Of a stretch of DNA of 64,000 nt, positions 42,072-43,496 are shown one piece after another (within the stretch, counting starts at the first letter, position 1; every line of letters starts with the position of its first letter). Source of the stretch: Escherichia coli. Lineage in GTDB: Bacteria; Pseudomonadota; Gammaproteobacteria; Enterobacterales; Enterobacteriaceae. The notes beneath the pieces were generated by a model, which searched no databases, was not told the origin of the DNA, and saw only the letters and a list, made by a program, of their open reading frames with translations. A program made the translations under genes and the position numbers. The stretch lies in NCBI RefSeq assembly GCF_013122565.1, contig NZ_CP053258.1. The stretch is one strand, 5' to 3'.

Positions 42072-42095
42072 CGAATTACCATTCAGGGAGGAATA

Positions 42096-42695
42096 ATGGC
42101 TGACTATTTTGAAATACGTGCTGATTACAATCAGCACACCATCACGGTTTATCAGGCTTACAATGATGCAATCGCCGACGTCGCCGTACGTGGCGGGCGA
42201 TTTGGCAGCCCTTTTTCATTCAACCGCATGACCTGGATTAAACCCTCTTTTATGTGGATGATGGAGCGTAGCAACTGGGGACTGAAAAAAGATCAACAAC
42301 GCATTCTCGCAATCCGAATCAAACGCACCTTCTTTGATACATTGCTGGAACAAGCGGTGCTAACCACACCGGAAGCCCATGTCTATCCACATGCAGGAGT
42401 TTGGGAAACGTTATTTGCGCAAGCAAATGTGTATGTTCAGTGGGACCCAGAACGCAGCATAAATGGCAAAAAACTGGAGCACCGATCATTACAGCTTGGT
42501 ATTTCTCGTAACTTGATCAGTCAATTTAACGAAGACGCGATTGTTGCCATTGATGATCTGACGCCGTTGGTGCGAAAGTGTCATAACCTTTTGATAAACG
42601 GTAAAACAACACAGGCGAAATCCTTCCTGCCGCCAGAAAAAATTTATCCTGTTAGTGCAGCTGCGAGAAAGGCTTTGGGAATGAAAAATTCCTGA
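42096..42695 (+). CDS. Hypothetical protein, 199 aa, family unrecognised (possibly a DUF4291-like fold); first gene of a two-gene insertion
   Basis: ATG with GGGAGG SD 7 nt upstream; Trp/Met-rich motif [23 protein letters not shown]; no signal peptide or TM segment evident; not part of the K-12 apaH-folA junction. Confidence 0.75.
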   Translation: [199 protein letters not shown]

Positions 42696-42730
42696 GACAA
42701 ATACGCGCCTATTTAGCGGAAAATATCTAA

Positions 42731-43198
42731 GTGCGAGAAATCAACAGCGGGCTTAATACCAGAGAAATTATTCTGGCAATGATTGACGAAGCAGATGAAC
42801 CCCCATTTGCTGAGCAGCGGACCTGGCATCGCAGGCGAATCGCTTTTTTATGTGAATGCATCAGCGTTGCAGTCGACTACGGCTTCTTCTGTTCTGTCTC
42901 TCAGCAGTCAATAATGAACATAACCAGGATGGCTGACGATGTATGGATAACAGAAAGTAAAACGACCCAACTCATTGATATCTGGCAACAACTTAAGCTG
43001 CTTTATCCGCCAGAAACTATTCCCTACGCCCAGAAGTTACCCACTAAGGAATTGCTTGAACTGCTACTTTCTAGTCCTGATGATCTTCGAATAATTGAAA
43101 TTCCTGACATTATCGGTGATGTTTTTGATGACCAAACCTGGATTCGGTTATTCAAAAAACACTTTGCTGATGTTATTCAACTACGAAGTGATGTGTAA
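42731..43198 (+). CDS. Hypothetical acidic protein, about 140-155 aa (start uncertain: GTG at 42731 or internal ATG); second gene of the insertion
   Basis: ORF begins 35 nt after the preceding stop; AT-richer than backbone genes; no recognisable motifs. Confidence 0.65.
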   Translation: MREINSGLNTREIILAMIDEADEPPFAEQRTWHRRRIAFLCECISVAVDYGFFCSVSQQSIMNITRMADDVWITESKTTQLIDIWQQLKLLYPPETIPYAQKLPTKELLELLLSSPDDLRIIEIPDIIGDVFDDQTWIRLFKKHFADVIQLRSDV

Positions 43199-43496
43199 CA
43201 ATCCAAAATACATCGCCAGACGATAGACCAAAAAGTAAGTATTTAGCAGATACTCAACATTCTGACCTCTCTACAGAAATAGCAGAGTTTAAAAACTTAA
43301 AACTTCCGGTACTCATCAGAGAAACATCCTGTTTCTTCTGCAAGTTCATTTAATGCCAGGATGGCATCCTCGTTTATTTCAGTCCACTGTAGAGTGGCTT
43401 GATGGTTTAGACCTACGCAATGAGCGCGACTCACAAAATCGCGCTCACTGGTAAAATCAGACGTCTTATCGTTCAATTTGTAGTCATAGCAAAAAT

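Follow-up and report, generated by a model that had tools for sequence, protein, structure and literature searches.

In the described systems ParST/RES-Xre, MbcTA and DarTG, the two partners co-occur consistently and the antitoxin is an Xre, an MbcA or a macrodomain protein. Active ADP-ribosyltransferases (ARTs) without the catalytic glutamate are also known, among them Tpt1 and several PARPs. Closest in predicted fold to the first gene of the locus described here is RhsP2 of the RhsP2-RhsI2 pair from Pseudomonas aeruginosa, a T6SS toxin which acts as an ART on the 2'-OH of RNA and is accompanied by an immunity protein (PDB 7RT7). The site occupied by the locus is also familiar. Mine et al. 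2009 (Genetics 181:1557), whose subject is said to be the decay of ccd, reportedly distinguished at the folA-apaH junction a class (iii), in which a large piece of DNA carries a ccdA remnant and ORFs of unknown function, and a class (iv), which adds an insertion sequence to class (iii), the two ORFs being reportedly left uncharacterised. The folA-apaH (ccdO157) site of that study is the same as ours and shows the same states (REP/77-bp spacer, ccdAB, ccdA-remnant piece), and the classes (iii) and (iv), so described, fit the present loci, IS1 variant included. The plasticity of the junction has been published in PMC3184786, PMC7232551 and PMC7167474, each citing Mine et al. 2009, and these articles confirm both the plastic site and the defective ccd variants.

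The first gene belongs to DUF4291, whose several thousand members, spread over bacteria, fungi and some animals, are uncharacterised; in the literature that we searched, none of them has a reported biochemical activity. The family motifs QA[YF], WIK and [AS]IQ were defined in PMC12522546, where DUF4291 is described as common in fungi, where NAD+ binding comes from docking only, and where DUF4291 genes are shown to adjoin often the genes for KptA, Macro/PARG, ARH, NUDIX and NADAR proteins. Among these neighbours, Tpt1/KptA likewise has the ART fold without the catalytic Glu and acts on RNA.

We analysed a window of 64,000 nucleotides from Escherichia coli (contig NZ_CP053258.1). As originally predicted, about 1.4 kb with two co-directional ORFs lie between apaH and folA, in a spacer (42072-43496) bounded by the convergent stop codons of apaH (41223-42071, plus strand, a 282-aa allele) and folA (43497-43976, minus strand, 159 aa); both flanking genes are taken from the ORF list and from the RefSeq annotation at equivalent loci. 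At its 3' end apaH is the same as in the O157/ccdAB-type allele and exceeds the K-12 type by 6 nt; the spacer of the latter, put in the original prediction at under 100 bp, measures 77 bp (L003). ORF1 (CDS 42096-42695, plus strand) encodes 199 aa, with its start 24 nt past the end of apaH; it is preceded by a strong Shine-Dalgarno sequence (AGGGAGGAATAATG; the feature, counted from AGGGAGG, spans 42080-42695), and the Trp/Met-rich motif which had been quoted from its protein is found at residues 40-62. After a 35-nt gap and on the same strand comes ORF2 (42731-43198, from the ORF list), with a GTG start directly behind an in-frame TAA and a weak start context. The ORF1 protein is basic (pI 9.46) and the ORF2 protein, which had been estimated at about 150 aa and acidic, has 155 aa and a pI of 4.65. 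The impression of a lower GC content also held, with 45.5% for ORF1 and 42.5% for ORF2 versus 55.6% for apaH and 52.7% for folA (GC3 of 0.46 and 0.40 versus 0.61 and 0.58). The promoter and terminator scan of the region gave two promoter-like and three terminator-like sites, not above shuffled sequence, and therefore no internal promoter or terminator is claimed. ORF1 is probably co-transcribed with apaH through read-through of the apaH operon, because it lies 24 nt downstream, has its own Shine-Dalgarno sequence and is not separated from apaH by a predicted terminator. A functional link to ApaH was considered and rejected, the sole indications being adjacency and, in two other phyla, DUF4291 genes with unrelated phosphoesterase genes nearby.

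Three features had escaped the first reading: the site is a published hypervariable one, the islet is common, and the right-hand 200 nt of the spacer contain a ccdA pseudogene (43297-43487, minus strand), recognised by alignment with the O157-type ccdAB locus (L002), to which its nucleotide identity is about 80% over 70 nt only. A vestigial ATG (43487-43485) is followed by a frameshift after the fourth codon and by a stop after four codons; the residual frame runs from a TTG at 43476 to the stop at 43297, minus 14 internal codons (a 42-nt deletion), and the 85-bp ccd promoter/operator region is missing upstream. Its overall dN/dS is about 0.5, with values exceeding 1 in several pairs, strain PEC399 has an in-frame stop, and RefSeq gives the remnant a size of 21, 45 or 59 aa depending on the strain. 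This copy of ccdA is a dead remnant of ccdAB. No sequence similar to ccdB was found in the islet, and the homology with the O157 locus ends at the ccdA stop/ccdB start; the ORF1-ORF2 segment now fills the exact place of the toxin gene. With ccdB exactly replaced and ccdA decaying, the locus documents one death route for a chromosomal toxin-antitoxin system.

The same islet is present in 536 of the 5,426 complete E. coli genomes, in agreement with the strain-variable spot that had been suspected, while the junction otherwise carries ccdAB or the 77-bp spacer of the K-12 type (L003) and the site is empty in about half of the genomes. The 1.4-kb stretch is thus a real, previously catalogued strain-variable islet of E. 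coli and is not itself new: it occurs in about one tenth of complete genomes and is annotated in RefSeq, where the equivalent loci carry a 'DUF4291 domain-containing protein' and a 'CcdA family antitoxin'. An origin of the window outside E. coli was considered and rejected: although the islet studied reaches at most 97.7% identity with any complete genome, many E. coli match its flank at 99.2%, and the copy represents a rarer allele of the islet. The islet had been thought to be inserted into a K-12-type backbone, but the polarity is probably the reverse: the C-terminus of the 282-aa ApaH, with DUF4291 directly behind apaH, is common to other genera, which suggests that K-12, with its 77 bp, shows a derived state.

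Put together, these data lead us to consider the locus, with about even confidence, as one alternative allelic filling of the apaH-folA hot spot, a composite islet and not a dedicated two-gene machine. It would be composed of three independently acquired genes tied to inter-bacterial conflict. A rival explanation is that the whole is a functionless relic, hitch-hiking DNA retained only through its position between two essential genes; in its favour are the ccdA pseudogene, the shortened ORF2 with its weak start and its dN/dS of 0.33, and the empty site with which about half of E. coli genomes manage well. This rival is very unlikely: ORF1 has a dN/dS of 0.14 (0.5 for the ccdA remnant, 0.01-0.04 for the flanks), all seven of the loci examined have it intact, with every family-invariant residue kept, it has a strong Shine-Dalgarno sequence, and three or more enterobacterial lineages retain the gene at the apaH-folA site.

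The resemblance of ORF1 to DUF4291, at first uncertain, is firm: the protein matches the full length of Pfam PF14124 (E 5.1e-68, 228.9 bits, with residues 6-184 aligned to positions 1-180 of the 180-position model). The family motifs appear as Q20-A21-Y22, W47-I48-K49 and S131-L132-Q133, with Leu replacing Ile in the last. Among 45 aligned DUF4291 sequences 40 columns are invariant, and these include Y19, Q20, W47, I48, K49 and Q133. Relatives which are 55-59% identical to ORF1 are found in Bacteroidota and one which is 68% identical in Listeria. Sequence-profile searches in the PDB gave no relatives for ORF1 or ORF2, and an NCBIfam scan of the products of ORF1, ORF2 and the ccdA remnant returned nothing of use. 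The predicted model of ORF1 has an ART fold, and its closest solved structure is RhsP2. The canonical ART triads (H-Y-E, R-S-E or R-Y-E) are not matched, as motif I reads Q-A-Y and the motif III position on beta-5, where the catalytic Glu would stand, is occupied throughout the family by Gln (Q133). As active ARTs without this Glu exist, ORF1 may still be active.

We propose that ORF1 may be a conserved stand-alone ART-fold enzyme, which would bind NAD+ and transfer or handle ADP-ribose on a conserved cellular substrate. Since RhsP2 is the nearest structural relative, RNA or another nucleic acid would be the most likely substrate. The protein alone would not be lethal, considering the Gln at the position of the catalytic Glu, the strong conservation across phyla and the usual lack of a fixed partner. 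Because DUF4291 is a large, very conserved ART-fold family for which an RNA-modifying toxin is the nearest relative of solved structure, the member carried by E. coli B1/STEC strains offers a convenient place to learn the function of the family.

The original prediction had suggested a two-gene module, and the most developed form of this idea is a toxin-immunity, type II TA-like pair, with ORF1 as an NAD+-dependent, RhsP2-like, RNA-acting ART toxin and ORF2 as a protein inhibitor that binds it stoichiometrically, the pair having displaced ccdB at a place where addiction modules have settled repeatedly. Such a pair would agree with the order of the genes (toxin, then immunity, with a 35-nt gap), with a basic protein of pI 9.5 followed by an acidic one of pI 4.65, with a site known as a toxin-antitoxin hot spot, with the predicted ART and immunity-like folds and with purifying selection on both genes. 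The pI values were, however, discarded as support, as those of DUF4291 proteins span 5.5 to 10.2 across the family. The distribution of the two families was also unfavourable to the module, since they largely fail to co-occur elsewhere. DUF4291 is found without a relative of ORF2 in eight independent contexts (L035, L011, L012, L036-L040), and ORF2 relatives without DUF4291 in five (L004, L015, L021, L024, L027). The two families meet only at apaH-folA, in Escherichia and Superficieibacter, whose ORF1 proteins are 81% and ORF2 proteins 48% identical; this co-retention would fit a module. Searches returned 7,793 DUF4291 clusters (E<=1e-10) versus about 23 of the ORF2 family, and therefore nearly all DUF4291 genes have no ORF2 partner.

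The apaH-folA site of other enterobacteria shows the same dissociation. In one of them (L035), a DUF4291 gene encoding a protein 79% identical to ORF1 is followed by an unrelated 175-aa gene, which counts among the contexts against the pair and could also be read as a substitute immunity gene; in another (L004) the ORF2 relative stands alone, which would fit the usual path of TA decay, where the toxin is lost first. In H9Ecoli, a viable strain, an IS1 element separates an intact ORF1 from an ORF2 that has lost its 5' end, which is weak evidence against an obligate pair. Further objections to a toxin come from the protein itself: the E1576Q substitution, equivalent to the Gln of DUF4291, inactivates RhsP2 (PMC12340436), and the strong conservation and fungal spread of the family (PMC12522546) are unlike those of arms-race toxins. 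On the side of ORF2, the Escherichia protein lacks the zinc-ribbon domain of its longer relatives and has a weak start context, and no autoregulatory promoter or operator was evident in the promoter and repeat scans. A toxin-immunity module is rather unlikely; ORF1 and ORF2 do not behave as an obligate toxin-antidote pair and are best read as independent cargo, a judgement in which we place about as much trust as doubt. The islet also departs from ParST/RES-Xre, MbcTA and DarTG in that its partner is not conserved, has no DNA-binding or macro domain and gives no PADLOC match. A bolder version, unlikely in our view, would make DUF4291 an active RNA ART of a new catalytic type, with Gln for Glu, checked in enterobacteria by ORF2 as founder of a new zinc-ribbon/helical inhibitor family. 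If ORF2 did check an active DUF4291, about 10% of E. coli genomes would harbour, in this islet, a new toxin-immunity module built on an ART, and it would provide the first tractable handle on several thousand uncharacterised proteins.

Considered as independent cargo, ORF2 is an all-alpha protein which defines a tiny unnamed family (about 23 clusters) with an immunity-protein-like predicted fold. Its fold is predicted to be nearest to that of the T6SS immunity protein SsdAI, and it resembles in fold the all-alpha proteins of SsdA-SsdAI and of the DUF416/YjaG-like type, without membership at the sequence level. ORF2 and 11 aligned relatives gave no Pfam match, even at E<=10, and no NCBIfam match; matches to SMI1/KNR4 and Imm5 proteins in AFDB50 were without significance (E>0.3). 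Longer relatives have an N-terminal CPxC...CxxC zinc ribbon, which is absent from the Escherichia proteins. The genes of two distant homologues (P0136 and P0141) are embedded in arrays of small genes that all run the same way, among them SMI1_KNR4 (a weak match), DUF4304, DUF6678 and TriTu, and no toxin gene was found on their contigs; the contigs that carry P0143 and P0138 are too short to show gene context. In the window, the flanks of the islet are core genes, and neither a deaminase gene nor any other gene for a secreted toxin lies next to ORF2. ORF2 would thus be an N-terminally shortened member of its family, probably either an orphan of the immunity type or a gene on which constraint is slowly fading; the immunity-type reading is suggested by the predicted fold and the distant genomic contexts, which resemble those of polymorphic-toxin immunity proteins. 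Two truncated ORF2 copies (P0007 and P0006) were not retained as natural losses, as they come from an error-ridden assembly and a contig end.

The contexts of DUF4291 and of ORF2 also bear on another rival, according to which the islet collects antidotes and all three genes would serve protection, not attack: ORF2 would be an orphan immunity protein directed at an incoming contact-dependent toxin, DUF4291 would counteract or buffer an ADP-ribosylation attack, as a Glu-less ART-fold protein sequestering NAD+ or ADP-ribosylated targets or by repairing the latter, and ccdA would be a former anti-addiction antitoxin, consistent with its having been kept at first without its toxin. We know of no ART-fold protein acting as an eraser or a decoy, which counts against such a role. 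In Chryseobacterium, the DUF4291 gene clusters with NrtR, NADAR, PARG, SIR2, ARH and KptA, and among these the eraser families NADAR, PARG and ARH can protect from ART toxins, PARG being the family of enzymes which reverse RhsP2-type marks (PMC11833690). In Treponema, DUF4291 comes first in an array of small genes which share its direction and include SMI1/KNR4, and ORF2 relatives are found in arrays with TriTu and SMI1/KNR4; the 'immunity array' label given to the metagenomic contexts is drawn from few Pfam matches, some of them weak. Since DUF4291 is in many cases a solitary gene in a metabolic neighbourhood (Streptomyces and Listeria are examples), and ccdA is now plainly dead, an antidote islet is decidedly unlikely. 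A role in conflict for DUF4291 itself is nevertheless conceivable, because some of its genes are part of immunity-like arrays, as in Treponema, or adjoin toxin-delivery loci, namely a two-partner secretion locus in Ralstonia and a giant gene in Burkholderia.

The anti-phage module that had been put forward as another option fared less well. Comparable to CmdTAC and DarTG, ORF1 would ADP-ribosylate RNA or DNA on infection and act by abortive infection; the predicted ART fold, the strain-variable, low-GC and horizontally exchanged DNA and the existence of ART-based defence systems (PMC11618068) would be in line with it. But no PADLOC-DB v2 family was matched at E<=1 by ORF1, ORF2 or the ccdA remnant, the matches in PHROGs are only to unknown-function families (E 0.006-0.012), and neither the cassette nor ORF2 was found in phage records. 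The neighbours are core housekeeping genes and not a defence island, no chaperone or sensor component is present, and DUF4291 genes are usually solitary, in a family whose conservation extends to eukaryotes (PMC12522546), all of which renders an abortive-infection system extremely unlikely.

As to the spread of the composite islet, the reported lack of mobility features was borne out: the ORF list contains no integrase or transposase in the islet, the tRNA and Rfam scans of the region gave nothing, and the repeat search returned only chance-level matches, short and in two copies, and none that would form terminal repeats where the islet begins and ends. A comparison of E. coli Combat11I9 with E. 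whittamii (L016 and L013) provided the mechanism. Over about 1.8 kb the two differ by 4-5 mismatches, versus 5-15 per 100 nt outside, where the divergence is about 10%, and dS is 0 for ORF1 and ORF2 versus 0.36-0.38 for apaH and folA. The near-identical segment, which takes in the last ~250 nt of apaH and the last ~130 nt of folA, corresponds approximately to 41817-43623 of the window (coordinates mapped from L016). Homologous recombination in apaH and folA carries the islet even from one Escherichia species to another, and the crossovers inside these two genes explain its lack of mobility genes. The locus therefore constitutes a clean case of an islet without mobility genes passed between species through two essential flanking genes. 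A plasmid-borne cassette was rejected, the two full-length 'plasmid' matches being records of 0.4 and 1.3 Mb; true plasmids carry only an IS-captured piece made of truncated ORF2, the ccdA remnant and folA.

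The islet between apaH and folA is real, common and already catalogued. In the window, plus-strand apaH stops at 42071, and the 159-aa folA, encoded on the minus strand, ends at 43497; the two genes converge, and 42072-43496 is precisely what lies between their stop codons. It contains ORF1 (42096-42695, plus strand, 199 aa), which lies 24 nt after the apaH stop and is preceded by a strong Shine-Dalgarno sequence, and ORF2 (42731-43198, plus strand, 155 aa), whose GTG start stands immediately 3' of an in-frame TAA. The two co-directional ORFs of the original prediction were thus recovered, as was their lower GC content (45.5% for ORF1 and 42.5% for ORF2, versus 55.6% for apaH and 52.7% for folA), and ORF, repeat and tRNA scans of the islet region agreed with it in detecting neither a transposase or integrase gene nor a tRNA or terminal repeat; an Rfam scan matched no family either. 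The original prediction had overlooked a ccdA relic (43297-43487, minus strand) in the last 200 nt. A 34-nt direct repeat with 74% identity (42240-42273 in ORF1, 42838-42871 in ORF2) is probably due to chance.

The spot was predicted to vary between strains, and when the region was compared by megablast with 5,426 complete E. coli genomes, three main states emerged: the window-type islet, the O157-type ccdA-ccdB toxin-antitoxin pair and the K-12-type 77-bp spacer. The islet is present in 536 of these genomes (~10%), and the proportions of the three states were roughly 10%, 37% and 50% in 30 evenly spaced records. RefSeq names its genes 'DUF4291 domain-containing protein', 'hypothetical protein' and 'CcdA family antitoxin'. 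Many E. coli strains match the flank of the window at 99.2% identity, which marks the window as genuine E. coli; its islet is a rarer allele, with no complete genome exceeding 97.7% identity to it. The abstract of Mine et al. 2009 reportedly describes a class that combines a ccdA remnant with ORFs of unknown function, and is also said to mention a variant with an insertion sequence. We found an IS1 variant of the islet in strain H9Ecoli. The plasticity of this junction is recorded in later literature citing Mine et al. (PMC3184786, PMC7232551, PMC7167474).

In the ccdAB allele, the stretch between the stop codons of apaH and ccdA is taken up by ccdB, and the ORF1-ORF2 segment of the window (42072-43296) fills exactly this space. 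The window ccdA copy shares only ~80% DNA identity with ccdA-O157; the 85-bp upstream region and 14 internal codons are missing, and the copy is frameshifted after four codons (MTTN-stop). Such copies evolve near-neutrally and one strain carries a stop codon. Judged by these lesions, it is a pseudogene. The window and the ccdAB-type allele share an identical apaH 3' end, which is 6 nt longer than that of K-12 and gives an ApaH of 282 versus 280 aa. E. coli with the islet or with ccdAB, as well as other enterobacterial genera, have the 282-aa form (...GEGEAVAS; window 42046-42071), and K-12-type strains, in which the 77-bp REP spacer is present, have the 280-aa form (...DLGEAAAS; 1140-1166 of the K-12-type locus L003). 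This distribution suggests that the 'empty' state is derived, and the earlier framing of an insertion into a K-12 backbone is probably reversed.

Comparing E. whittamii with E. coli Combat11I9 indicated how the islet moves. In apaH, folA and beyond, the two loci show 5-15 mismatches per 100 nt, but there are only 4-5 mismatches over ~1.8 kb, from ~250 nt inside apaH to ~130 nt inside folA, with a dS of 0 for ORF1 and ORF2 versus 0.36-0.38 for the flanks. Homologous recombination therefore passes the islet between species, the mismatch pattern placing the crossovers in the two core genes, and this route explains why it contains no mobility genes.

The resemblance of ORF1 to DUF4291, which had been proposed with doubt, proved to be a full-length HMM match (E 5e-68). 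This large family (7,793 clusters at E<=1e-10) is unusually conserved: ORF1 is 81% identical to its relative in Superficieibacter, 68% in Listeria and 55-59% in Bacteroidota, 40 columns are invariant among 45 sequences, and within Escherichia a dN/dS of 0.14 shows purifying selection. A 2025 survey predicted DUF4291 to be an atypical ADP-ribosyltransferase (ART) family with the motifs QA[YF], WIK and [AS]IQ and with neighborhoods enriched in TetR, NUDIX, Macro, ARH and Tpt1 genes (PMC12522546); ORF1 has all three motifs. RhsP2, a T6SS toxin of Pseudomonas aeruginosa, ADP-ribosylates the 2'-OH of structured RNAs through an R-Y-E triad and is dead as E1576Q (PMC12340436), and no hydrolase type other than PARG has been shown to reverse its marks (PMC11833690). 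Unlike RhsP2, DUF4291 has an invariant Gln at the position of the catalytic Glu, so that its chemistry, if any, is not canonical. In Chryseobacterium lactis (locus L012, 1226-12349), DUF4291 belongs to an 11-kb run of co-directional genes, rich in those for NAD/ADP-ribose metabolism, in the order NrtR, NADAR, 2OG-Fe(II) oxygenase, adenylosuccinate-synthetase-like, DUF4291, bacterial PARG, DUF2971, SIR2, ARH, PM0294_C, KptA/Tpt1 and Metallophos, which looks like a toolkit for writing, erasing or repairing ADP-ribosylation. Elsewhere, the gene is part of an SMI1/KNR4 array in Treponema, neighbors a two-partner secretion locus in Ralstonia and lies opposite a 14.7-kb giant gene in Burkholderia; given these contexts, DUF4291 itself could still have a conflict-related, possibly protective role.

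ORF2 has no Pfam, NCBIfam or PADLOC match and a dN/dS of 0.33. Its family is tiny, with 12 representatives in 1.84 billion proteins, ~23 clusters at 90% identity and members in 3 of 100,044 species genomes. All longer relatives start with a CPxC...CxxC zinc ribbon, which the Escherichia protein lacks, and distant ones occur in runs of small co-directional genes with SMI1/KNR4, DUF4304, DUF6678 and TriTu, presumably immunity-gene arrays. A 227-aa member with the ribbon has a fixed context in enterobacterial chromosome CP043271.1 and related contigs (~4065-6661 of loci L024-L026), following a DUF3828 protein and preceding a 115-aa protein and two Lpp-like lipoprotein genes; an AFDB match of 244 aa in Salmonella Typhimurium SL1344 possibly represents this gene.

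That ORF1 and ORF2 form a toxin-immunity pair, as originally suggested, would suit the toxin-like and immunity-like folds of their predicted models, their order, their opposite charges (pI 9.46 and 4.65), their co-retention in two genera and the hot-spot location. At the same site in Superficieibacter electus, DUF4291 (81%) precedes a long ORF2 relative (48%, 218 aa) and then a PRiA4_ORF3 gene; on a second enterobacterial contig, the gene after DUF4291 (79%) is an unrelated one of 175 aa, and a third contig has a long ORF2 relative alone. HMM searches over every locus fetched found DUF4291 without an ORF2 relative in 8 independent contexts and the converse in 5, the two together occurring only at the syntenic apaH-folA locus, and in H9Ecoli an IS1 lies between ORF1, which is intact, and an ORF2 truncated at its 5' end. 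The pairing is therefore not obligate; the toxin-immunity suggestion finds only partial support, and we consider such a pair unlikely. We give about an even chance to a composite islet, in which ORF1 would be a conserved, probably non-lethal ART-fold enzyme using NAD+ or ADP-ribose and read through from apaH, ORF2 an orphan immunity-type protein and ccdA a dead third component. Homologous recombination shuffles the islet among Escherichia. Its interest lies mainly in placing an uncharacterized, widespread ART-like family in a tractable organism.

Other tenants and rearrangements were seen nearby. In S. electus and an enterobacterial contig (L009 and L035), the conserved acidic PRiA4_ORF3-domain gene (~205 aa, minus strand), between the DUF4291 cassette and folA, holds the position of the Escherichia ccdA remnant and is another recurrent tenant of the hot spot. 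In E. coli EF7-18-58 (locus L019, 1-3233), IS1 adjoins the ccdA remnant, with aldB-yiaW beyond it in place of apaH, which indicates that an IS1-mediated rearrangement deleted ORF1 and ORF2 and separated apaH from folA. IncY plasmid pPK5074-69kb (NZ_CP072804.1, 3248-6363 of locus L030) carries a chromosomal segment with 5'-truncated ORF2, the ccdA remnant and folA, caught between IS1 and IS26 and adjoining blaTEM-1. It shares with the H9Ecoli chromosome the same IS1-ORF2 junction (identical IS1 transposase and truncated-ORF2 proteins) and the ccdA-remnant protein, and with EF7-18-58 the IS1 transposase, the ccdA-remnant protein and the folA allele; such a mobilized chromosomal dihydrofolate reductase gene could increase trimethoprim tolerance. 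In E. coli PEC399 (locus L017, 3427-4401), the IS30-like ISApl1 lies directly upstream of folA, between folA and kefC, and might alter folA expression.
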